From positions 106,832 through 170,831 of the forward strand of contig NZ_CAXTHG010000005.1 of assembly GCF_964244005.1 (NCBI RefSeq): 64,000 nucleotides of DNA, given 5' to 3'. Source of the DNA: an uncultured Friedmanniella sp. GTDB taxonomy: Bacteria > Actinomycetota > Actinomycetes > Propionibacteriales > Propionibacteriaceae. Position numbers and translations under genes: made by a program. The stretch's first letter is position 1; each line of letters opens with the position of its first letter. Below the pieces are notes generated by a model that was not told the DNA's origin, ran no database searches, and saw only the letters and a list, made by a program, of their open reading frames with translations. Shown in pieces: positions 29,609-42,325 of the stretch.

Positions 29609-30400
29609 TCAGGCGTGGCTGTGGACCAGCAGCCGGTAGGGCGGCTGCGAGAACAGCAGGTTGGCCTGCTGGGGTCCGACCGAGGAGGCGTGCTCGTCGT
29701 CGACGGGATCGTGGACGCTCGCCTGCCAGGAGCGGACCGCCGCGTCGGTGAGCTCGAGGTAGTTGCCCGTGGTGGGCAGTGCCGTGGCCCCGTCGCGCTG
29801 GTTGAGGACGTGCTGCAGCCGCCGTACCGAGTCTGACGCCATGGTCCCGAAGCAGAGCTTGGCCACGTAGACGTCACCGCGGCTCCAGTCCTCAGTCACG
29901 CTGTGCTGGACGTCGTCGGTGCCCACCCGCTGCTTCCAGGTCTTGGCCCGCTCGACCGCGTCCTGGGCGTAGGCGTCACCGCCGTTGTAGGCCTTGGCGC
30001 TCTGGTAGAAGCTTCCGGTCGAGCTTCAGGTGCGGTGCAGGACGGAAATGCCGAACCGGATGTTGTCGGCGGGCACCCAGGGCTGCAGACCCTGCTGCTC
30101 CATCTGGTCAAAGAATCCCCGGAACGTGATCTGCATCGGACCGACGCCGTTGCTCGACTGGTGCCGGATCAGCTCGCGGAACTTCTGGTACCGCTCCTTG
30201 GTCACCTCGATGTCGTGACCAGACTCGGAAAAGGCGCCACCCCGGTCGTGGCCGAAGATGTTCGCGCCGCCCGTCTCCTTCTGCAGGATGGTGCAGCCGA
30301 GGTAGAAGGGAAATCCTGTCTGGTCACAGGCGGCGGCCAGCGCCTCGACGTTGGTCAGCCACTGTCCGGCTGCGGCGATCTGTTCTTCGGTGACGCTCAT
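29609..30400 (-). pseudogene. Lysozyme/lytic-transglycosylase-like peptidoglycan hydrolase with C-terminal PG-binding-like domain; one in-frame TGA at 30026-30028
   Basis: GGAGGT RBS and ATG at 30400. LQKETGG (catalytic Glu), NGVGPMQIT, PADNIRFG; past the TGA the same frame reads AKAYNGG..YA, then KLCFG..SDSVRRLQHVLN...TGNY...TDAAVRSWQ. Confidence 0.7.
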
Positions 30401-30588
30401 TCCGACCTCCACGAGAAACGTTCCCTGACCCGTACGTGAGAGGTCACGGCGACGTCGGAAATACCGTTCAGGACGACCTTTTCCACCCGCTGGTCGACGG
30501 CTTGGTGACCGGTATCACGCCACCGTGGAGGCGCTCTGTCTGGGCACCGAGCGCCACGACGGCGCTCACCTTTCGGATGGAGCGCACC

Positions 30589-32430
30589 ATGCCAGAAACA
30601 CCGCAGGAACAGCTCGAGCAGGCGGGCGGGATCACCAAAGCGCTGCTCGACACCCTCGACCAGCTGGTTGACCGCATCCTCGGTCAGCAGACGGTGGACA
30701 AGAGCGGCAAGCCGCTCCGTCAGGTCGCGTACATGCACATGCCGAACGGCCTGCCCGTCGACCCGCGTCAGTACGCCAACCCCTGGACCCCGGCCGGTGG
30801 AGCCACCCTGGCGAAGCTGAACAACGACGGCACCCTGCCGAAGGTCGACCCGGTGCCGCCGCCCGTGCCGCAGCCGGCCGCCCCTGCCGGCACGCCGCCG
30901 GTCACCCCGGTGCCGGTCAAGCCCACCCAGGACCAGGCCCTGATGGCGTCGATGCAGGCCGCCCTGAACACGGCCTGGCTCTTCGACGAGATGCCCATGG
31001 TGACCGGGGACGGGACCTACCGGCCCTACCCGAGCACCCGCAAGCTCAGCTCGGCGTACGAGGGTCTCGTGCACTCAGTCCAGGCCGTCCCCCCGCCGCC
31101 GCAGCCGGCCGACGTCGCGCAGGCCCTGGCGGATGCCGAGAAGGTCCTCTACAACCACGACGCCGACGGCAACATCACCGGTCCCTCGATCAAGTTCCAG
31201 AACTGGATCAAGTTCTCGCAGAGCTACGCCGACGCCAAGGCCACCTTCGCCACCCAGCAGGCCCAGGCCATGGCCGACCCGATCCTCGGTTCGGTGTGGC
31301 CCGCGACCGGCGCCTCGCTGCAGCAGAAGGTGGACACTGCCTACCAGATCTGGCGCAGCTCGGGCGCCGACGACGTCGAGAAGGCCCTCGACCTGATGAA
31401 CTCCGAGGGCGGCTCGGCGGCCGCGCACTTCGTCTCCCAGGCCCGCGAGCTGCTCGACAAGTGGGACCTCTCGCTGGCCGGCGCCGTCGCGGTCCGCACC
31501 CCGTACACCCAGGTCACCCCGGCCAGCTGGTACGACCACACCAACAATGACATCGGTTTCGCCGGGATCTCGGCCTCGTCGGACCGCTACCACAGCAGCG
31601 GCGGCGCGCAGAGCAGCAGCTTTGCCAACAGCTGGTACAAGGGGACGAGCTCCTCGACCCAGGCCAGTGCGGGTGCGAGCTTCTTCGGTATCAGCATCGG
31701 CGGTTCGGGGGGCGGCTCGTCCTCGGAGAGTGACAGCGCCGGTCACCAGGGCGGTCAGTCCTCCAGCCAGCACGCCGACTCCTCCACCACGGCGTCGATC
31801 TCGTGCGAGTTCGGCGTGATCAAGATCGAGCGGCCCTGGTTGTTGACCGAGCTGTTCCACATCGGTGGCTGGTACGTACCCGGTGAGAAGGCCGGCTGCG
31901 TGAGCGACGGCACGATCGCCGGCCAGGACGGCGACGACAAGAAGCTGCTGCCGATGATCACCACCCAGGCGCTGGTCATCCGCAACGTGACGATCACCGC
32001 CACCGGCTGGGGCGCGGCGGGCCAGGCCCTGTCGGAGTACCAGGCCAACCAGGCGGCGCACTCCGACAGCAGCTCCTGGAACGCGGGCGGCAGCGTCGGC
32101 TTCATGGGCTTCGGCGGCTCCGTCAGCCACACCGAGAGCGACTGGGCCGGCAGCCAGTCCTCCGACGCCTCGTCGAGCTGGGGCTTCTCCTACGACTCGT
32201 TCACCGACACGGGCACGCTGACCATCAACGGCTCGCAGATCGCCGGCTACATCGGCGAGATCGTCGGCTCGAACCCGCGGCTCGACGACCCGAACGTCGA
32301 CAAGCCGGCGGACACGACGACGGACCCCGCGCCCGCCGACAGCACGCCGACGACTGACGGCACCCCGACGTCCGACGGCAGCGGCACCCCCGTTGCCCCG
32401 ATCCTGACGCCCGCCGGCGCCAACGTCTGA
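30589..32430 (+). CDS. Uncharacterised 613-aa protein A with two Ser/Gly-rich hairpin-like segments (candidate pore-forming subunit)
   Basis: Strong coding bias, GGAG RBS before MPETPQ, no signal peptide, Pro/Thr/Asp-rich tail; paralogous to the next gene. Confidence 0.85.
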   Translation: MPETPQEQLEQAGGITKALLDTLDQLVDRILGQQTVDKSGKPLRQVAYMHMPNGLPVDPRQYANPWTPAGGATLAKLNNDGTLPKVDPVPPPVPQPAAPAGTPPVTPVPVKPTQDQALMASMQAALNTAWLFDEMPMVTGDGTYRPYPSTRKLSSAYEGLVHSVQAVPPPPQPADVAQALADAEKVLYNHDADGNITGPSIKFQNWIKFSQSYADAKATFATQQAQAMADPILGSVWPATGASLQQKVDTAYQIWRSSGADDVEKALDLMNSEGGSAAAHFVSQARELLDKWDLSLAGAVAVRTPYTQVTPASWYDHTNNDIGFAGISASSDRYHSSGGAQSSSFANSWYKGTSSSTQASAGASFFGISIGGSGGGSSSESDSAGHQGGQSSSQHADSSTTASISCEFGVIKIERPWLLTELFHIGGWYVPGEKAGCVSDGTIAGQDGDDKKLLPMITTQALVIRNVTITATGWGAAGQALSEYQANQAAHSDSSSWNAGGSVGFMGFGGSVSHTESDWAGSQSSDASSSWGFSYDSFTDTGTLTINGSQIAGYIGEIVGSNPRLDDPNVDKPADTTTDPAPADSTPTTDGTPTSDGSGTPVAPILTPAGANV

Positions 32431-32442
32431 ACGGAGCTGCAG

Positions 32443-33951
32443 ATGTCTGACGCCACTGGGCTCCTGGCTCTCGGCCAAGCACTCGATGACTACCTGAGCA
32501 GTGAGTACGCGCCGCCGCCAGGAACCCAGACGGCGTTGGGCTTCGTCCCCGGGGTCGCCGTCAACCCGTCCTCCTTCTCTCCGACCGGCGTCGTCAACCC
32601 GATGGCGGTCCAGACCTTCCTGAACGTCGTGACCAACCTGATGGGACCCGTCGTCGACGGCCGTTTCTCCGGCTTCCTCTCGGCCGCGACAATGTACGGG
32701 GCGTTGATCAACATGGCGACACCTCTCGACCCGCTCGGGACCCCCGCGGCCGACGCCTTCCTCCGGGTGGTCAACACCGCGCGGTCGGCCTTCGGCGGCA
32801 ACGGGCCGAAGGAGCTGGTGGCCGTGCCGCTGAACTGGTACGACGCCACCAGCACCGGCGGCTGGTCGACCTACACCACCACCTCGAGCGAGCAGTCGGG
32901 CGAGGGCCAGAGCAGCACGAGCGGCACGGGCGAGCCGCCTACCGACACCTTGCCCGACCCCCACCAGTCGCCGCCGATCATCGACCAGACCCGGTTCGAG
33001 AAGATGTGGCGCTTTCGCACTCTCGACGAGACCGCGATCGCCGAGGTGGTCGTGCCGACCGTCGACCCGCCCGTGGCGGTCGAGGTGACCCAGCCTCCGG
33101 TGGTCGTCGCGGAGCAGCTGGTGAAGAGCCACCAGCCGGTCGTCCGTGACCACGTCGGGGTGGACCTGTCGGAGACCTCCGTCCGGACCAAGGGCCGGGT
33201 GTTCCAGACCAGGCTTTCGGCTTCGTCGGCGGACCTCCTGGTGCCCTCGACCGGCCGGCTCCAGCTGCGGGCGCCCACGCTCGCCGCCGGGTTCGTCGCC
33301 ACGCCCCTGGCGCGGACCGTCGACGATGACGCAGCGGTACGCGTCCTCGCCGCCGGCTCTCGGCGCCAGCTGGTCGCCGCGCTCGCCCAGGACAACTCGG
33401 TCATCGCCGGGGACGGCGACCTCGCGGTCTCCCAGGCGCTGGCGCACCTGATCCGGGCCCAGTCGCCGGCCGTGGTGGCCGAGATCGACGACGACCGCGA
33501 GACCACCTCGACCCAGTCGATGGAGACCAACGAGCTCACCCTCTCCCTCGAGTACTGCTTCGTGCAGATCTCCCGCGACGGGTGGTGGAACGACGCGGTG
33601 CTCCGGATGCCGCGCTGGTACGCCCCCGGTCAGAAGGCGGGCGAGTTCAGCTCAGGGACCGCCGTCGGCGGGCTGCCCCTCGGCGTCCCGATCGCCATGG
33701 TGCTGACCCGCAACGTCTCGGTGAGCGGTCGCTGGACCGAGTCCGACCGGACGGCCGCCGAGAGCCACACCAGTCTCGGCCCCTGGTCGATGCAGGACTC
33801 GCAGATGGCCTACGACGCCTCCTCGGAGACGGCCACGCTGACCATGCCCAGCATGCAGGTGGTGGCGGTCGTCTGTGCCGTCCTGCCCGCCCTGCCGCCG
33901 TCGGACGACCCGAGCCTCCCGGCCGCCGCGCCGGACCCGGCCACCCACTAA
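32443..33951 (+). CDS. Uncharacterised 502-aa protein B, paralog of protein A
   Basis: GGAG RBS, starts 12 bp after A. Shares P..WYD, W(Y).PG.KAG..S.G, RNV....W and T.TLT....Q....DDP motifs with A. Confidence 0.85.
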   Translation: MSDATGLLALGQALDDYLSSEYAPPPGTQTALGFVPGVAVNPSSFSPTGVVNPMAVQTFLNVVTNLMGPVVDGRFSGFLSAATMYGALINMATPLDPLGTPAADAFLRVVNTARSAFGGNGPKELVAVPLNWYDATSTGGWSTYTTTSSEQSGEGQSSTSGTGEPPTDTLPDPHQSPPIIDQTRFEKMWRFRTLDETAIAEVVVPTVDPPVAVEVTQPPVVVAEQLVKSHQPVVRDHVGVDLSETSVRTKGRVFQTRLSASSADLLVPSTGRLQLRAPTLAAGFVATPLARTVDDDAAVRVLAAGSRRQLVAALAQDNSVIAGDGDLAVSQALAHLIRAQSPAVVAEIDDDRETTSTQSMETNELTLSLEYCFVQISRDGWWNDAVLRMPRWYAPGQKAGEFSSGTAVGGLPLGVPIAMVLTRNVSVSGRWTESDRTAAESHTSLGPWSMQDSQMAYDASSETATLTMPSMQVVAVVCAVLPALPPSDDPSLPAAAPDPATH

Positions 33952-33994: not shown

Positions 33995-35110
33995 ATGGCC
34001 ACCTACCCCAACGCCGAGTGGCGGCCGCTCGCCGCCGGCAGCCCCGGTGCCCCGATGGACGCGCACGACATCGTCTGCGTCCACACGATGGTCGGCTTCC
34101 TCGCCGGCACCGAGTCGATGTTCCGCGAGAACGGCTGGGCTGGCACCGAGTCGCACCTCGGGGTCGGCGGCCCCGCCGACGGCGCCCTGGACGGCACGGT
34201 CTACCAGTGGGTCGACACCGACGACCAGGCCGACGCCAACCTGCAGGGCAACCACCGTCTGATCAGCATCGAGACCAGCGACGGGGGCGACGAGAAGAAC
34301 CCGTGGTCGGACGCACAGCTCGACGCGATCACCGGCATCATCGTCTGGGCGTGCCAGACCTACGACATCCCGGCGGAGCTGATCGCCGACAGCACGGCCG
34401 GGCAGCGCGGCATCGGCTATCACCGCCAGGGCATCGACCCGTGGCGGGTGGCGGCCGGTGAGAAGTGGTCGAACAGCAACGGCAAGGTCTGCCCGGGCGA
34501 CGTCCGGATCGCCCAGCTGGTCGACACGATCATCCCGCGCGTCCAGGCGCAGGTGTCGGGCTCCGGGTCCGGGACGGTGTCCACGGCCCTCATCCTCGAC
34601 GCGATCAGTCCGGACGCCGGTGTCGCCGGTGACCAGGTCGTGCTCACCGGCTCCGGGTTCGCGCCGGCGGACGGGGTGTCGTTCGGCGGCGTCTGGGTCG
34701 AGACGTGGACCATCGACAGCGACAGCCAGATCACCGCGACCGTGCCCGAGCCGAACGCCAGCGGCTCGGTCTCGGTGGCGGTCAGCACCCCCGACGCGAC
34801 GAGCGACGGGGTCTGGTTTAGCTACGCCGACAGCTCTACGCCGCCCTCGCCGCCGACGTCATCACTGACCCTGTCCTTCATCGGTCCCGACACCAGCACC
34901 GCCGGCAGCCAGGTGGTGCTCACCGGGTCCGGGTTCCTGGCGGCGAACGGGGTGTCGTTCGGTGACGTATGGGTCGACACCTGGACCATCGACGACGACA
35001 GCCAGATCACCGCCACCGTGCCCGAGCCGGTCACCAGCGGCTCGGTCTGGGTCTCGGTGAGCTCGCCGGACGCGACGAGCGACTCGATCTCTTTCGCCTA
35101 CGAGGAGTGA
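33995..35110 (+). CDS. N-acetylmuramoyl-L-alanine amidase (Amidase_2, Zn) with two C-terminal IPT/TIG domains
   Basis: GAGG RBS; VCVHTMVG, SHLGVG, ISIETSD, IGYHRQG, GKVCPG (H/H/C Zn ligands); two ISPD.G..G.QVVLTGSGF...VSFG repeats. Confidence 0.88.
   Translation: MATYPNAEWRPLAAGSPGAPMDAHDIVCVHTMVGFLAGTESMFRENGWAGTESHLGVGGPADGALDGTVYQWVDTDDQADANLQGNHRLISIETSDGGDEKNPWSDAQLDAITGIIVWACQTYDIPAELIADSTAGQRGIGYHRQGIDPWRVAAGEKWSNSNGKVCPGDVRIAQLVDTIIPRVQAQVSGSGSGTVSTALILDAISPDAGVAGDQVVLTGSGFAPADGVSFGGVWVETWTIDSDSQITATVPEPNASGSVSVAVSTPDATSDGVWFSYADSSTPPSPPTSSLTLSFIGPDTSTAGSQVVLTGSGFLAANGVSFGDVWVDTWTIDDDSQITATVPEPVTSGSVWVSVSSPDATSDSISFAYEE
34634..35083 (+). repeat. Tandem intragenic duplication of a 174-bp IPT/TIG coding unit (34634-34807 and 34910-35083)
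   Basis: Both copies run CAGGT.GTGCTCACCGG.TCCGGGTTC ... GACAGCCAGATCACCGC.ACCGTGCCCGAGCCG ... GACGCGACGAGCGAC, with the same length and no gaps. Confidence 0.9.
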
Positions 35111-35145: not shown

Positions 35146-35240
35146 CCCGGATCATGCATGAGGTGGCGGTTCTGTCCGCGAGTTGATCAAGCGAAGAGTG
35201 CTCCTGACCAGGGAGAATTCTTCTTGCGACGGACATATTT

Positions 35241-36561: not shown

Positions 36562-36830
36562 TCAGGTACGGTGAGACGCGGGCATCATCGTCCTTGTGGT
36601 GCCGACGGCAGTTGAGCCAACGAAATAGTACGTGGTGTCGGGATTATACTGCCAACCCGAAGACAGACATACAGTTCCGTTTTGATTGACAACGGACGAA
36701 GCGCCGCCAATAAATCCAGCTGGACGAGCGTGAGGCCTGCCCGATCCACAATTACCATCACGGCTGATACTGTTCACTTCACCAACATACTCCGGTGAGT
36801 TAACAACGATTCGCGCTTGATCAAAGCCGC
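36562..36830 (-). CDS. Small low-GC hypothetical protein, probably 5'-truncated
   Basis: Frame is open upstream of GTG 36777 (...ARIVVNSPEYVGEVNSI...PAGFIGGASSVVNQNGTVCLSSGWQYN); no good start codon is found. Confidence 0.4.
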
Positions 36831-37573
36831 ATAGGTGGACACCGCCCGTACTGAAAGTTACATTCGAGACCCCGGTCTGGTCCGACCTCCGGCGTCCCGG
36901 GTCGCCAGTGCCACGGGTGACCGCAGTCGTGACACTCGAACGAGCAGCCGTCCCGGACCTGCACGGCGAGCACCCCGAACGACCCGCAACGAGGGCACTG
37001 CACCACCCGGCGTACGGCCCGCTCGGGATCCGCCGTGGTCAGCCGGATCTCCTCCGAGGCGGGCGGAACAGGCTGGTCGTGGTCTGCCTCCGGGTCCGGC
37101 TCGGCGACCAGCGGGGGCGGGGCCGACAGCGACGCCGCCCCGGACACCGCGCCAGCCGCGCCGCGTTCGGCGGCTTCGTGCCAGGAGAGCCCACCCGTCG
37201 ACCTGCCGGCGGCGGCTCCGGTCAACGTGAACCCAGCCTCCGCGGGCGCCGCTGGCCCCGGCGAGAGCGGCGGCAGGGCTGGCGGCCGGGTCTGCGGCCG
37301 GGGAGCAGGACCGGTGGCGGGGTCGCTCGACTCACCGCCGGTCGCCCGAACCGGTGCGGCGAGGGCCGTCGATTCCTGGTCGGCGGCGATCATGGCGACC
37401 GCGACCGCACACAGAGCTGCGACGAGGACCGCCCCGGAATTGACCACCCAGGGAAAGCGGATCTGCTGGTCGAGGACGAAGCCGATGGTGACCACGGCAG
37501 CCAACGAGCCCAGCGCGGACGCCGCGGCCACCCGGAGGAGCACCACCAGCCGCGGGACGGGTGCCTCAGCCAT
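36821..37573 (-). CDS. Membrane protein with C-terminal Zn-ribbon (CPRC...CHDC); C-terminus apparently replaced by island sequence
   Basis: Two N-terminal TM helices, Pro/Ala linker, VQCPRCG...FECHDCGHPWHW. The last ~20 codons lie in the low-GC segment. Confidence 0.7.
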   Translation of the reverse strand: MAEAPVPRLVVLLRVAAASALGSLAAVVTIGFVLDQQIRFPWVVNSGAVLVAALCAVAVAMIAADQESTALAAPVRATGGESSDPATGPAPRPQTRPPALPPLSPGPAAPAEAGFTLTGAAAGRSTGGLSWHEAAERGAAGAVSGAASLSAPPPLVAEPDPEADHDQPVPPASEEIRLTTADPERAVRRVVQCPRCGSFGVLAVQVRDGCSFECHDCGHPWHWRPGTPEVGPDRGLECNFQYGRCPPMRL

Positions 37574-38144
37574 GCTTCACGAACCTCAGGTCGACCGGAC
37601 CGTCGGTCTGGATCGGCCGGCACGACCGGCCGTCGATGGAGGTTCGCCACACCACGGTGTCGCCGTCCGGGCTCCAGCCGAGGTCGGTGAACCCCTTCGC
37701 CAGGCAGACCCCCTGCGCCGAGACCTCCACCGCGTTGGGCACCAGCTGCTGCGGCGCACTGCCGACCGGGAGACGGGTGAGGCAGTGCAGCTCGATCGCC
37801 AGCGCGGCGTCCGGGGAGGGTGAGGGAGAGATCGGCGGCGGTGCGCTGGGCGGCGGCGCGCTCGCGGTCGGCGTGGTCGGCTCGGCCACGGTCACCTCGG
37901 CGACCTGGTACGGCAGGGGCAGCGAAACGCCTTCACCCTGCCATTCTGGACGGTTTCCCGAATACAGGTCGACCAGTGCGTGCAGCGTGCTGAGCAGGGT
38001 CAGCGGCACCACGTGGGCGTCGATCAGGATCAGGCCCCACAACCCCAGGACGGCGGTACCCGTAGCGATCACGATAAAGACCAGGGTCACGATCAGCAAC
38101 GTCGAATCGCTGGATCGCTGCGCGATATTCCGGCTGGCCGACAT
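37566..38144 (-). CDS. Hypothetical membrane-anchored protein
   Basis: N-terminal TM segment, Pro-rich linker; 8-bp overlap with the downstream gene. Confidence 0.6.
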   Translation of the reverse strand: MSASRNIAQRSSDSTLLIVTLVFIVIATGTAVLGLWGLILIDAHVVPLTLLSTLHALVDLYSGNRPEWQGEGVSLPLPYQVAEVTVAEPTTPTASAPPPSAPPPISPSPSPDAALAIELHCLTRLPVGSAPQQLVPNAVEVSAQGVCLAKGFTDLGWSPDGDTVVWRTSIDGRSCRPIQTDGPVDLRFVKHG

Positions 38145-38218
38145 CGGACCACCATGCCCGCTCCGGTGACGTCGGGGGAGGGGTTGTCCGACGAACTCCG
38201 GTCACGAGATCACGCCGG

Positions 38219-38992
38219 CTACCTGACGTCGACGAAGTCTCCAGCGGTGTGGGAGGACCCGCTGGACCCGGTGCCGGCGAAGACGAGACGGTAGTAGCCG
38301 TCCTGGGTCCCGGACGTCACCGTGGTGCGGACGGTACCCGCGGTGCTCGTCTTCAGGCTCTTGATCGTCGCGTACGTGCCGTTCGTCGTCCGGAACTGCA
38401 GGTCGAGGGGCCGGCCGGAGTAGGGGAGGTAGCGGCCCCTGTCCCAGTTCGCCCGCTCCAGCAGCCCCGTCACCGTGACGGTGCCGCCCGCCCTGACCGG
38501 CTCCGGGCTGGCGTTGACCTTCAGTCGGGTGGCGCGGAGGACCTGGAGGTCGTTGGTGACGGCGGCTTCGGGCTGGTCGTCGAGGATCCGGAACGTCGTC
38601 GGCCACGGCCCGGCCTGGTCGTTGGTCAGCGCGGACGGCCTGAGGGTGATGGTGGCGTCGAAGAAGGTCAGGCCGTCGAAGCTCTCACCCTCGGCCAGCG
38701 GCACCCGGTAGATCTTCGGCCCGCCGTCGAGCACGACGTCGGTGGCGGAGGCGTTGGCGCTGCTCTCGGTCACGGCCATGCTCAACGGGACCTTCTTCGT
38801 CTTGCTGACTCCGACGACGACGGGGTCCCGCGGCGCGAGGGCGGCCTGGATCCGGAAGGTGGCCGGCCGGGGCGGTGCGGCCTGGGCCGGAGCCGCGGCC
38901 AGTCCGGTGGCCGCCGTCCCGACCACGGCGAGAGCGGCGAGTGAGAGGGCGAGGCGGCGCGGGGTGCGCTGCTGCAGCGTGAGGTGATGCAT
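38219..38992 (-). CDS. Secreted protein, DUF5707-like
   Basis: Signal peptide ending AQA-A; C-terminal RLKVNASPEPVRAG.TVTVTG.LERANW...LQFR...Y.T.K...DGYYRL.FAG...GDFVDVR, as in Streptomyces secreted proteins. Confidence 0.75.
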   Translation of the reverse strand: MHHLTLQQRTPRRLALSLAALAVVGTAATGLAAAPAQAAPPRPATFRIQAALAPRDPVVVGVSKTKKVPLSMAVTESSANASATDVVLDGGPKIYRVPLAEGESFDGLTFFDATITLRPSALTNDQAGPWPTTFRILDDQPEAAVTNDLQVLRATRLKVNASPEPVRAGGTVTVTGLLERANWDRGRYLPYSGRPLDLQFRTTNGTYATIKSLKTSTAGTVRTTVTSGTQDGYYRLVFAGTGSSGSSHTAGDFVDVR

Positions 38993-39117
38993 GGCGGTAC
39001 TCCTTCTGAGCGGTGGTGGGAACCCCGACAGTGTGCTGGGCATCGGTTGCGGCCCGCTTGCGCTCGTGGGCCGGCCCCGGACCGCCGCTCTGCAACCGGG
39101 CTGCAAACCGCGCGAAG

Positions 39118-39181: not shown

Positions 39182-42100
39182 CTAAGGCGAGATCCCCGCC
39201 CCGACGACGCCGATCAGGGAGGTGGCCAGCGCGCGGAGCCGTGGGCCGAGGAAGTATTCGCCGGTCTCGGCGGCGACCTCCGCCGACTGGCGGGCCCGCT
39301 CCCGGGCCGTCGCCAGGTCACCGTGCCGCGCGTACGCCTCGGCGGCGAGCATCCGGTAGGTCGGCGCGAAGATCTTGATGCCGCTGTTCCGGTAGGCCGC
39401 GGCTGCGGCGTCAGCCCGCTCCGGCCCGGTCGGGTCGCCCTTCATCGCGTCGGCCCACGCCTGCACCTGGTCGGCGTGCAGCTCGAAGATGCCGAACCCC
39501 AGCCGGTCGGAGAGCCGGCGGCACTGCTCGCCACGGCGGCGGGCCTGGTCGGCGTCGCCGCGCATGGTGGCCAGCAGGGCGAGGTAGAAGTCGCACTTCA
39601 CCTGAACGTCCTCAGCCGTCGTCGAGGAACGCAGCAGCCCAGCCACCTCCTCGTCGGCCGCGGCTTCGTTCCCGACCGCGTGCTCGAGCATCGCGCGGTA
39701 GGCGTAGACGTCCTCGACCATGTGGAACAGCCGACCGGGCAGCTGGATGTCGACGCCGTCGGCCAGCAGCTGGCGGAGGACGTCCAGCTCGCGCCGGGCG
39801 GTCCTCAGGTCGCCGGACAGCAGCGCCAAGTGTCCGAGCACGAAGCGGGCTGTGCTGGCGGCGATCGGGGCCGGTCGGTCGGCCAGCACCTCCGCCGCGG
39901 CGGCCATCGACCCCGCGTAGCGGCCACGGACGGCGGTGGCGACGACGGTGCCGAGCCAGGCGGCCGCCGACGCGGCGTCGGTCGGCGCGGCCGGGGCCGG
40001 CGTCGGCAGTCGTTCCTCGGCGCTGCTCGCGGCCCACATCCAGAGGGCGTCGAGATGGCCTTGCACCAGGGCGTGCAGGGACTGGCGGACGACGGGGTCG
40101 GGGACCGCCGCCGCGAGCCGGAGGGCCTGGACGAGCGTGTCGTGGGCCGCTTCGGTGGCGGAGCGGCGTAACGCGTCCTCGGCCGCCGACACGAGATAGG
40201 GGACAGCTGCGGCCGGTCCGACCGCCGGCGCCGCGAGCACCAGCTGACGGGCGACCTCGAGCACCTCGTCGGTCTGCTGGGGGTTGCGCTGCTGCAGGGC
40301 GGCCGCGATCTTGGCGTGCAGGTGGACGCGGCGGGCCACCGAGAGGCGGGCGACCAGCGTCTCGCGGACGAGCGCGTGGCTGAGCGCGAACCGGCCCGTC
40401 CCGTCGCCGGTCTCGACCAGCAGCCCGGCCAGCAGCGCGGCCTCGCAGGAGTCGAGGACCTGTTCCTCGTCCAGGCCCGTCGTCCGGGCCAGCAGGTCGG
40501 GGGTGACAGGCCCGGACCCCAGCAGGGCCGCCACCCCGAGCAGCGAGACCGTGGCTGCCGGCAGCCGGTCGAGCCGGCGTCCCAGGACGTCCAGCACCTC
40601 GGCGGGCAGAGCCTGCTGGGCCGCGCTGGTGGTGAGTCCTCGCTCGGCGCTCAGCAGCTTGACCAGCTCGGTCACGAAGAGCGCGTTCCCACCCGTGCGT
40701 TCGGTGACGGCCGCGACGACCCCCGGCTCGGGCTCGCGGCCGTCGATGGTGCGGATCAACGCCGAGACGTCCTCGGCCGCCAGCGGCGCCAGCTCGACCC
40801 GGGTGACCAGGTCGCGGGGCAGCGAGCCGAGGGCCCGGTCGAGCTCGGCGGTGGGCTCGTCCGAGCGCACCGCGACCGCCACGAGGAGGCCGTCGGGGGC
40901 GAGCTCCTCGACCGCCAACCGGAGCAGGGTCAGCGTGTCGCGGTCGACCCAATGGGCGTCGTCGACCAGCACCGCCACGGGTCCCGACCGCTGAGCCCGC
41001 TCGAGCAGGTCGAGCACCCCGCGGAACAGCAGCGACCGGCTGAGCGGCGGCCGCGTCTCGGACGGGTCCTCCGGTGGAACGGGCTGCAGCGCGGCGAGAG
41101 CCGCCGCCGACGGGTCGTCGTCGCCGCGGGTTCCCTCGGCCAGGCCGGGGGTGGCGGCGGTGAGCTCGCGCAGCACGGTGACCCAGGGCCAGAGCGCCGG
41201 GGCCGCCCCGTCAGGCAGCCCGTGCCCGTGCACGACCCGGCCGCCGGACCGCCGCACGACCTCCTCGAGCGCGTCGAACACGGTGGTCTTGCCGGCGCCC
41301 ATCGGGCCGCGGACGACCACCAGCCCTCCTGACCCGGAGGACGCGGCGCGCACCACGCTCGCCAGGGCGGCCAGCGCCGGTCGGCGCCCGACCAACGGCC
41401 ATCCTGCGGTGGTCCGGGCCGGGTCGGGCCGGTCTGGATCGGCAGCGGGCAGCGACGGCTCCACCTGGACCAGGCTGCGGTCGGCGCTCGGTCGCGGGGC
41501 CCGCAGGACCGGGTCGTGCTGCAGCAGCTGGCGTTCGAGGTCGCGCAGGGCGGGCGACGGGTCGAGGCCGAGCTCGTCGGCGAGCGTCCGGCGCAGCTGC
41601 CCGTACGTGTCCAGCGCCTCGGCCTGCCGACCCGTGCGGTAGAGCGCGATCATCAACGCGCGCCAGCCGCGCTCCCGGAACGGTCGGGCTGCGACCACGC
41701 GACGTGCCTGGTCGACGACGACCTCGGGCTCACCGACCGCGAGCCTGGCCTCCAGCAGCGTCTCGACGGCCGCGTCACGCAGGTCACTGAGCCGGGTCGC
41801 CTCCGTCCGGGCGAACGGCACGTCGGCCAGGTCGCCCAACGCCTCGCCCGACCACAGGCCGAGCGCCTGGTCGAGGTCGGCGACGGCTGACCGCAGCGCG
41901 GTCGGCTCCCCGGACTGGGCGGCCGCGCGGCCCCGGTCCAGCAGCGCGCTGAACCGGGATAGGTCCGTCGCCTCCGCCGGCAGGCTCAGCACCCACCCGG
42001 GTGGCTGAGTGGTGATCTGGGCAGGCGTCGGTTCCAGCACCCGCCGCAGCCGGGACACGTACGCCCGCAGCGTGAGGACGGCCTGCGCCGGTGGGCCGTC

Positions 42101-42253
42101 GGGCCAGAGCTCGTCGATCAGCCGGTCCGTGCTGACGACCCGGCCGGCTTCCAGCGCGAGCAGGGCGAAGACGGCCCGCTGCTTGACGCCGCCGAGCGGC
42201 AGGGATCGCCCCTCGTGCCGGCACGTCACCGGGCCCAGTAGCCTCACCTGCAT
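39182..42253 (-). CDS. AfsR/SARP family regulator (OmpR-type HTH, BTAD, AAA ATPase)
   Basis: VRLLGP...KQRAVFALLAL, LIDELWPD, BTAD (PFRERGW..LM.ALYR.GRQAEAL), GPMGAGKTT, VDDAHWVD, RTGGNALFV. Confidence 0.92.
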   Translation of the reverse strand: MQVRLLGPVTCRHEGRSLPLGGVKQRAVFALLALEAGRVVSTDRLIDELWPDGPPAQAVLTLRAYVSRLRRVLEPTPAQITTQPPGWVLSLPAEATDLSRFSALLDRGRAAAQSGEPTALRSAVADLDQALGLWSGEALGDLADVPFARTEATRLSDLRDAAVETLLEARLAVGEPEVVVDQARRVVAARPFRERGWRALMIALYRTGRQAEALDTYGQLRRTLADELGLDPSPALRDLERQLLQHDPVLRAPRPSADRSLVQVEPSLPAADPDRPDPARTTAGWPLVGRRPALAALASVVRAASSGSGGLVVVRGPMGAGKTTVFDALEEVVRRSGGRVVHGHGLPDGAAPALWPWVTVLRELTAATPGLAEGTRGDDDPSAAALAALQPVPPEDPSETRPPLSRSLLFRGVLDLLERAQRSGPVAVLVDDAHWVDRDTLTLLRLAVEELAPDGLLVAVAVRSDEPTAELDRALGSLPRDLVTRVELAPLAAEDVSALIRTIDGREPEPGVVAAVTERTGGNALFVTELVKLLSAERGLTTSAAQQALPAEVLDVLGRRLDRLPAATVSLLGVAALLGSGPVTPDLLARTTGLDEEQVLDSCEAALLAGLLVETGDGTGRFALSHALVRETLVARLSVARRVHLHAKIAAALQQRNPQQTDEVLEVARQLVLAAPAVGPAAAVPYLVSAAEDALRRSATEAAHDTLVQALRLAAAVPDPVVRQSLHALVQGHLDALWMWAASSAEERLPTPAPAAPTDAASAAAWLGTVVATAVRGRYAGSMAAAAEVLADRPAPIAASTARFVLGHLALLSGDLRTARRELDVLRQLLADGVDIQLPGRLFHMVEDVYAYRAMLEHAVGNEAAADEEVAGLLRSSTTAEDVQVKCDFYLALLATMRGDADQARRRGEQCRRLSDRLGFGIFELHADQVQAWADAMKGDPTGPERADAAAAAYRNSGIKIFAPTYRMLAAEAYARHGDLATARERARQSAEVAAETGEYFLGPRLRALATSLIGVVGAGISP

Positions 42254-42325
42254 AGCGAGCAGTGTGGCACCACGCCGCGGGGGCCGACCAGGTCTGGCGA
42301 GCACCGAGGGACGTGTCGGCAGGGC

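Follow-up and report, generated by a model that had tools for sequence, protein, structure and literature searches.

What is the function of a large protein that carries two Ser/Gly-rich segments, each centred on an aromatic turn? This question is raised by the 64,000-nt stretch of DNA analysed here (the window; uncultured Friedmanniella sp., contig NZ_CAXTHG010000005.1, 70.5% G+C), in which an open reading frame (ORF) on the plus strand at 30589-32430 encodes a 613-aa product, protein A, identical in translation to database protein P0001. A sequence-only reading of the window had proposed that the two segments resemble twin transmembrane beta-hairpins, two per monomer, as in the MACPF/CDC proteins. 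Our favoured answer, to which we give a probability of about 0.4, is that protein A is a new two-hairpin beta-pore former and that, together with the neighbouring protein B, it constitutes a regulated self-perforation or lysis module acting in a holin-like manner with an endolysin.

The reading frame of protein A opens with an ATG, 8 nt downstream of a GGAG ribosome-binding site. Both Ser/Gly-rich segments are present exactly as they had been quoted, SSSTQASAGASFFGISIGGSGGGSSSESDS at residues 354-383 (nt 31648-31737) and SDSSSWNAGGSVGFMGFGGSVSHTESD at residues 492-518 (nt 32062-32142), and so is the globular block IERPWL...GWYVPGEKAG...LLPMI...RNVTI that separates them. Each segment lies within a longer interval, which we call excursion 1 (residues 331-400) and excursion 2 (residues 473-530), respectively (Table 1).

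The segments could be low-complexity disordered linkers devoid of any specific role, and both their low AlphaFold confidence and a weak NCBIfam match to 'serine-rich protein' (E = 0.049) point in this direction. However, an alignment of 70 full-length homologs of protein A (33-79% identity), on which all the conservation figures below are based, makes this explanation hardly credible. Indeed, excursion 1 measures 69-71 aa throughout (standard deviation, SD, 0.36) and excursion 2 measures 58-62 aa (SD 0.77); both are 0% Pro, 53% Ser+Gly+Ala and nearly gap-free across the alignment. The true linkers of the same protein behave quite differently: the stretch 72-112 varies from 21 to 51 aa (SD 4.4) with 18% Pro, and the C-terminal tail 572-613 varies from 0 to 95 aa (SD 18.6) with 16% Pro. 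Because of this fixed length, the lack of Pro, the near absence of gaps and the conservation of their tips by residue class, the excursions look, as far as the alignment tells, like conserved structured elements constrained as structural parts are, and not like linkers.

The same alignment bears out the aromatic-turn motifs that had been proposed. Column by column, both excursions contain a short stretch in which hydrophobic or small apolar positions alternate with Ser, Gly or Asn around a two-residue turn. In the first tip, position 365 is hydrophobic in 98% of the sequences and position 368 in 87%; in the second, position 505 holds an aromatic residue in 69 of the 70 and a hydrophobic one in all. 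A His follows each tip and is itself conserved (H376 in 47/70, H514 in 61/70). Moreover, the two excursions align to each other without gaps, tip on tip, at an offset of exactly 140 residues (hhalign probability 91%, E = 9e-7, values that low complexity probably inflates). Since the tips thus form in-register repeats, their arrangement suggests either an internal duplication or a strong convergent constraint.

Where do the excursions stand in the predicted fold? The AlphaFold2 model computed on the 70-sequence alignment (predicted local distance difference test, pLDDT, 73; predicted template-modelling score, pTM, 0.69) has a helical N-terminal half, including a long helical hairpin at 201-273, and a C-terminal half made of very long strands (401-414, 456-472 and 541-558). 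Excursion 1 leaves this sheet between strands 325-330 and 401-414, and excursion 2 between strands 456-472 and 531-558; the sheet is confident and the excursions are low-confidence. A helix opens each of them (345-359 and 475-491), the second being confidently predicted. The models place tight turns at the tips, at 366-367 and 506-507, in line with an aromatic turn centring each segment; a small hairpin, 503-505/508-510, appears in excursion 2 of the full-length model, and beta-bridges 365/368 and 505/508 are formed when the C-terminal half is modelled alone. In these models the topology of the excursions matches that of the hairpins of gasdermins and MACPF/CDC proteins, strand adjacency being assumed from sequence order.

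The distant members of the family point the same way. Compact relatives of 450-530 aa keep the core motifs RPW, ISxG, LPxIP, RN and GxQIxGW, and they retain both excursions in a shortened form, with the tips 'G(L/F)WSxG' and 'G(W/Y)GPF'. Sub-threshold matches to the Pfam family Porin_4 (Gram-negative porin) were obtained in 7 of 50 of them, and in the two cases that we examined the matches coincide exactly with hairpin 1 in P0152 (290-340) and with hairpin 2 in P0154 (414-449). An independent porin profile thus weakly scores the putative hairpin stretches as membrane beta-strand-like.

The relationship to MACPF/CDC proteins that the two-hairpin layout had brought to mind did not hold up. Neither PF01823 (MACPF) nor PF01289 (Thiol_cytolysin) matches protein A, protein B or 50 distant relatives; the MACPF signature (Y/W)-G-(T/S)-H-(F/Y)-x6-G-G and the CDC undecapeptide are absent from all 70 family members; and the 50 Foldseek matches listed for the model of protein A, a model of pLDDT 73 whose excursions are disordered, include no chain of either group, so that the fold typical of MACPF/CDC, a bent core sheet of four strands between two clusters of helices, was not recognised. 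The likeness is therefore one of design. As in pleurotolysin, the CDC-like proteins of Bacteroidota and C8/C9, the proposal for protein A involves two hairpins per monomer, and these would be long, with arms of about 29-35 residues that imply a tall barrel. The helical stretch that opens each excursion in the monomer model (345-359, 475-491) is another common trait, and the two-component forms of MACPF/CDC pair an inserting with a non-inserting subunit, as proposed here for A and B. Unlike these pore formers, however, protein A does not appear to be secreted.

The gasdermins offer a parallel in several respects. Like protein A they are cytoplasmic and lack a signal peptide; they extend two beta-hairpins per protomer from a twisted sheet, as the models would allow for protein A; and they act in a cell-death or conflict context, which the caspase-family gene beside some members of the A family may echo. 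The best Foldseek match of protein A is the bacterial gasdermin of Runella zeae, 7n52 (E = 0.19, template-modelling scores 0.10/0.21), which is non-significant. Gasdermins 7n52 and 7n50 recur with the C-terminal half modelled alone (E = 2.2 and 5.0), a search that is not interpretable because that model is poor (pLDDT 44). The bacterial gasdermin is the only pore-former fold to recur among the weak Foldseek matches listed, which we take as a lead and not as evidence. One may ask whether protein A goes back, with great divergence, to the same ancestor as gasdermins or MACPF/CDC proteins, its hairpins being inherited and not convergent. This is a question of ancestry, and the mechanism it implies overlaps with the pore readings. 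The recurrence of 7n52 and 7n50, the topology of two excursions from a long-stranded sheet, and caspase-family genes beside A-B in four loci would all agree with common descent. Nevertheless, we hold it to be improbable: the fold matches are all non-significant (E from 0.19 to 5, template-modelling score at most 0.21), no Pfam or PDB profile match appears even at E = 10, and the MACPF signature and the CDC undecapeptide are missing, as is an N-terminal Cys (the palmitoylation site), of which there is none within the first 10 residues of the 70 sequences. Protein A also exceeds a bacterial gasdermin in size by a factor of 2-2.5, with 613 aa and a large helical N-terminal half against about 250 aa, and no protease lies near it in the window. 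Furthermore, it differs from gasdermins by its obligatory paralogous partner, by hairpin regions that are Ser/Gly-rich and predicted disordered where those of gasdermins are folded against the core, by the lack of sequence or significant fold similarity, and by its link to murein hydrolases. To our knowledge, gasdermin operons are not known for carrying the latter.

No known family accounts for the two proteins either. Pfam returned no family at E ≤ 1 for A or B, and sequence searches with both against NCBIfam, PHROGs, PADLOC and PDB gave no useful match; in PDB, neither the sequence or profile of protein A nor a profile of its distant relatives found anything at E ≤ 10, and no PADLOC defence-system model matched A, B, the amidase gene described below or the upstream ORF at E ≤ 1. 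The named database members that we inspected are all called 'hypothetical protein', apart from one Mycolicibacterium member labelled 'Bacteriophage protein', and we found no description of the family in the literature, including the paper of Kaur et al. (2020) on conflict systems. As judged from these comparisons, this is a candidate beta-pore former family new to annotation, which shows no detectable kinship with the families on which the two-hairpin principle is founded.

The strongest clues to function are two features that the sequence-only reading had missed, the paralog B and the murein hydrolases. Protein B is related to protein A (BLASTP E = 2e-9; hhalign profile-profile probability 98.4%, E = 6.5e-15), and it has a gap in place of hairpin 2 and lacks the Gly-rich hairpin 1. 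No signal peptide is visible in it. Among 58 A loci gathered from genomes and metagenomes, B adjoins A in every one with enough flank (about 50), mostly downstream and in three cases upstream; A and B are therefore an obligate pair. The pairing extends to a distant compact relative of A, whose downstream neighbour is B-like (E = 1.2e-32 against the B profile).

After B the apparent operon continues with a third gene, for an amidase. It starts 43 nt past B, its PHROG matches are endolysin-like, and on inspection its product has no signal peptide. Beyond this gene, at 35201-35215, lies a terminator-like hairpin. Orthologs with the same Amidase_2+TIG architecture adjoin A-B in loci L010, L030, L035 and L036. 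Elsewhere the hydrolase is of another type: GH25+CHAP accompanies A-B in L012 and the loci related to it, Streptomyces loci have Glucosaminidase (joined in L028 to hemopexin repeats) and M23+PG_binding_1, and N-acetylmuramidase is also among the wall-directed neighbours. We took a blind count of the Pfam families in 208 ORFs that lie within about 3 kb of A-B in 44 loci; it gave 10 ORFs with PG_binding_1, 4 with Glucosaminidase, 3 each with GH25, M23 and Amidase_2, and 2 each with Muramidase, Tle1-like phospholipase and Caspase, unrelated Pfam families occurring at most twice each. Murein hydrolases of at least five types are thus enriched beside A-B. The N-termini that we inspected showed no signal peptides, and the operon context fits an attack on both membrane and cell wall.

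How could these enzymes reach their substrate? Protein A has no 19-residue window with a Kyte-Doolittle hydrophobicity above 1.8, hence no visible transmembrane helix, and no signal peptide was seen. Because none is visible in A, B or the co-encoded murein hydrolases, the pore would act from the inside; and because unrelated hydrolase types interchange beside a constant A-B pair with no export signals, the arrangement follows the logic of holin plus endolysin. Protein A is the only candidate for breaching the membrane, and the excursions are its only parts that look membrane-active, which leads to the self-perforation reading. According to this reading, protein A would be the membrane-perforating subunit of an undescribed two-gene module. 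Its C-terminal half would form a sheet of very long strands from which the excursions leave as b1-segment 1-b2 and b3-segment 2-b4, and oligomerisation would straighten them into two beta-hairpins, each protomer thereby contributing four strands. The amphipathic, aromatic-tipped ends (about 359-376 and 497-514) would span the bilayer, and the Ser-rich arms would make up the water-exposed upper part of the barrel. Protein B, which keeps the core sheet without the hairpins, is probably translated together with A, and its probable role is to assemble with A or to gate it. The pore would open the producer's own cytoplasmic membrane and let the hydrolase, here the amidase-TIG protein, get to the wall. 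The module would thus be a cellular, non-phage counterpart of holin and endolysin, presumably under tight regulation, resulting in programmed lysis or release. What the analysis shows is the conservation of the segments, their place between predicted strands, the paralogy of A and B and their constant pairing, the enrichment of murein hydrolases nearby and the lack of matches to known families; we infer membrane insertion, the formation of an oligomer or ring, the direction of action, the role of B and regulation by the SARP-type protein encoded downstream.

The parallel with phage holin-endolysin cassettes and type 10 secretion lies in the gene order, one or more membrane-lesion genes followed by a murein hydrolase without signal peptide, and in the free exchange of the hydrolase (amidase, GH25, glucosaminidase, M23 or muramidase) between loci. 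There are differences too. Holins are small alpha-helical membrane proteins, whereas A and B are large, soluble and devoid of transmembrane helices. No homolog of protein A was found in 50,697 phage genomes or in PHROGs, the neighbourhood is not that of a prophage, and a Foldseek search of the full-length A model against viral structures returned nothing at E ≤ 0.001.

Several observations weigh against the self-perforation reading, which is built by computation from sequences and models. The excursions themselves provide the first of them. AlphaFold confidence falls below 50 inside both segments, so that the hairpins are not actually modelled; the adjacency of b1 to b2 and of b3 to b4 is assumed from sequence order; and the C-terminal half modelled alone is poor overall (pLDDT 44) and does not fold in isolation in silico, which indicates that it is not an independent domain. 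Foldseek found nothing at E ≤ 0.001 for the full-length A model among 350,542 PDB chains. The alternating hydrophobic residues claimed by the sequence-only reading hold in part: they are seen in the columns of the 70 homologs, but their amplitude is low, the putative lipid-facing residues being mostly Ala, Gly and Val, about four per strand, and the Kyte-Doolittle period-2 scores of the tips (1.13 and 1.42) do not rise above those of shuffled profiles (maximum about 2.1). For this reason we claim no statistical support for the amphipathicity of the tips.

These features would suit a rival explanation in which the aromatic-tipped Gly/Ser arms are structured and do not insert. They would bind peptidoglycan or another polymer, or zip A subunits together in a cross-beta or beta-solenoid-like manner, and A-B would be a scaffold or regulator of murein hydrolases in wall remodelling, with no pore. 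Low tip hydrophobicity, alternation that does not exceed chance and disorder of the segments in the AlphaFold model all agree with such arms; the strongest signal of the context is the cell wall and not membranes, and a Ser/Gly/Asn/Gln-rich, Pro-free, aromatic-punctuated sequence suits self-association too. On the other hand, the strict lengths, the location between long strands, the in-register duplication, the aromatic turn and the porin-profile matches are features of inserting hairpins, and for a cytoplasmic protein that carries no export signal, access to the wall requires a breach of the membrane. We regard this explanation as rather unlikely.

The context also counts against self-perforation in some respects. 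A hydrolase was found within 3 kb in only about one third of the loci. We judged the absence of signal peptides by eye and with a crude rule based on hydrophobicity, and two distant relatives of 497 aa (P0234 and P0235) do have Sec- or lipoprotein-like leaders, from which at least one minor clade of the A family appears to be exported; these are the only 2 such cases among 193 full-length members. Finally, phospholipase domains like Tle1 of the type VI secretion system (PF09994, E = 1e-82 and 4e-70) were found near A-B in two of the loci L001-L057. The Sec-type leaders and the phospholipases favour a weapon acting outward with the same twin-hairpin pore: A and B would leave the cell when part of the population lyses, or by some route not yet recognised, hydrolases and lipases would clear the wall of the target, A would perforate a competing bacterium or other cell, and B would be a targeting or nucleating subunit or the immunity protein of the producer. 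Both murein hydrolases and Tle1-like phospholipases belong to the classical antibacterial effectors, the hydrolases of these loci bear binding modules of extracellular type (TIG, hemopexin, PG_binding_1 and SH3), and a patchy spread over many phyla and megaplasmids would fit a conflict gene. Pore toxins made of two components, of which one inserts and the other helps, are moreover well known. However, 191 of the 193 full-length members are without any signal peptide, as are the hydrolase N-termini inspected; Actinomycetota, Cyanobacteria, Acidobacteriota, Proteobacteria and Chloroflexia share no secretion machinery, and the genes near A-B encode none; and no small conserved gene resembling an immunity gene was found near A-B. 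An exported weapon is in our opinion unlikely. Type VII or type VI secretion substrates, considered as a general explanation, were rejected because the module is present in phyla that lack those systems.

Does the composition of the arms have precedents? The single-hairpin beta-pore-forming toxins (aerolysin/ETX-MTX2, alpha-hemolysin and anthrax protective antigen) insert through a Ser/Thr/Gly-rich amphipathic loop, a composition also found in protein A. The insertion loop of anthrax protective antigen has a Phe-Phe tip, and the tips of A are likewise hydrophobic or aromatic. Unlike the arrangement proposed for A, these toxins are secreted and contribute one hairpin per protomer, and protein A has no Pfam match to their families.

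The family is large. An exhaustive profile search collected 1,361 representatives (clusters at 50% identity) at E ≤ 0.001, of which 521 at E ≤ 1e-10. The closest relatives of protein A (76-78% identity) belong to metagenome-assembled genomes of Nocardioidaceae and Marmoricola, and the A-B pair occurs in at least eight phyla, in organisms including Actinomycetota, Alpha- and Betaproteobacteria, Acidobacteriota, Cyanobacteria, Eremiobacterota, Chloroflexia and Armatimonadota; two megaplasmids each carry a homolog of A. A bolder version of the self-perforation reading, which we consider doubtful, would place the A family beside MACPF/CDC and gasdermins as an independent, third superfamily of giant beta-barrel pore formers with two hairpins: an obligate heteromer with a hairpin-less paralog, working as a cellular 'beta-barrel holin' that releases hydrolases without signal peptides for programmed lysis in many phyla, several of them filamentous or multicellular. 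If the self-perforation reading is true, it would assign a function to a superfamily of about 1,360 clusters (50% identity) in at least eight phyla and reveal a second bacterial route to holin-like lesions, one based on beta-barrels and of non-phage origin. It would bear on programmed lysis and the release of cytoplasmic proteins, DNA and toxins in Streptomyces, mycobacteria, rhizobia and cyanobacteria, on the origin of two-hairpin pore architectures by descent or convergence, and on what a hairpin-less paralog does within a pore complex. Large beta-pore formers that pass from a soluble to a membrane state are also useful as lysis tools and nanopores.

Table 1. Coordinates in the window of protein A, its subregions and the genes around it.
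Feature	Coordinates	Strand	Description
Two small divergent ORFs	29609..30412	-	105-aa ORF (29609-29926) with weak PG_binding_1 match, E = 0.002; 128-aa ORF (30026-30412) with no database match
Protein A	30589..32430	+	613 aa; ORF and ribosome-binding site; N-terminal ~300 aa mostly helical, C-terminal half predicted as long-stranded beta-sheet with both excursions
Excursion 1	31579..31788	+	Residues 331-400, between strands b1 (325-330) and b2 (401-414); Ser/Gly/Ala-rich, Pro-free
Putative hairpin-1 tip	31663..31716	+	Residues 359-376; hydrophobic 361/363/365, turn 366-367 (F-G), then 368/370/372/374, then conserved His
Core between excursions	31789..32004	+	b2, R415-P-W-L, G-W428-Y, S439-D-G-T, L-P455-M, b3 (456-472) with R465-N-V; invariant columns; common to B
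Excursion 2	32005..32178	+	Residues 473-530; confident helix 475-491 (W474-G-x-x-G), then Ser/Gly segment; Pro-free; not in B
Putative hairpin-2 tip	32077..32130	+	Residues 497-514; hydrophobic 499/501/503/505, turn 506-507, then 508/510/512, then His514
Strands b4/b5 and P-x-x-D-D-P	32179..32292	+	Residues 531-558 with G-S-Q-I-x-G; both common to B; variable Pro/Thr-rich tail after
Protein B	32443..33951	+	502 aa; 12 nt past the A stop codon; own GGAG; paralog of the C-terminal core of A
Amidase	33995..35110	+	N-acetylmuramoyl-L-alanine amidase (Amidase_2) with 2 x IPT/TIG; third gene of apparent operon
SARP-type regulator	39182..42304	-	Trans_reg_C + BTAD + AAA_16 STAND ATPase; 4 kb downstream of the operon

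Some further details of the two proteins were noted. The motif P-x-x-(D)-D-P closes the conserved part of both A (32275-32292) and B (33904-33921), preceded by a shared conserved C-terminal strand and followed by a variable Pro/Ala/Thr-rich tail; on this pattern it could be a processing or interaction site. Protein B keeps a short 'HTS(L/F)GPWS' loop resembling the 'GWGPF' tip of the compact A relatives, and its last strand (MQVVAVVCAVLPAL) is unusually hydrophobic. In one locus (L058:7001-9859), a ribosomal-protein cluster is interrupted between L29/S17/L14 and L16, an odd insertion site, by a compact A-like gene, P0152 (502 aa), together with the B-like gene that accompanies it.

Proteases also accompany some A-B pairs. 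Caspase-family (Peptidase_C14) genes lie beside A-B in four loci according to ORF clustering (L040:6962-7900, L037, L031 and L025), in L040 directly upstream of A, and a subtilisin (S8) lies downstream in L009:10124-11911. By analogy, these neighbours recall the protease-activated gasdermins. Another recurrent neighbour is a third gene of about 350 aa without Pfam match, after B or before A (L008:10298-11362, L003:11334-12374, L015, L021, L034 and L046), which in Alphaproteobacteria, Mycolicibacterium, Burkholderia and Bryobacteraceae takes the position that the hydrolase has in other loci.

In the window itself, the operon is flanked by genes for a sugar ABC transporter, an alcohol dehydrogenase and the SARP regulator. 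These ordinary flanks, and the lack of phage homologs, led us to reject a prophage lysis cassette. The 128-aa ORF on the minus strand had seemed lysozyme- or lytic transglycosylase-like by eye, through its E-T-G-G and G-P-M-Q motifs, and was set aside, neither Pfam nor PDB supporting it. The SARP-type protein is a possible regulator of the A-B module; near other pairs we noted a MalT-like STAND protein in L001 (Rhizobium) and, judged by N-terminal sequence only, a SARP-like ORF in the Streptomyces locus L028. The interval 36821-39106, between the operon and the SARP gene, is occupied by unannotated minus-strand ORFs.

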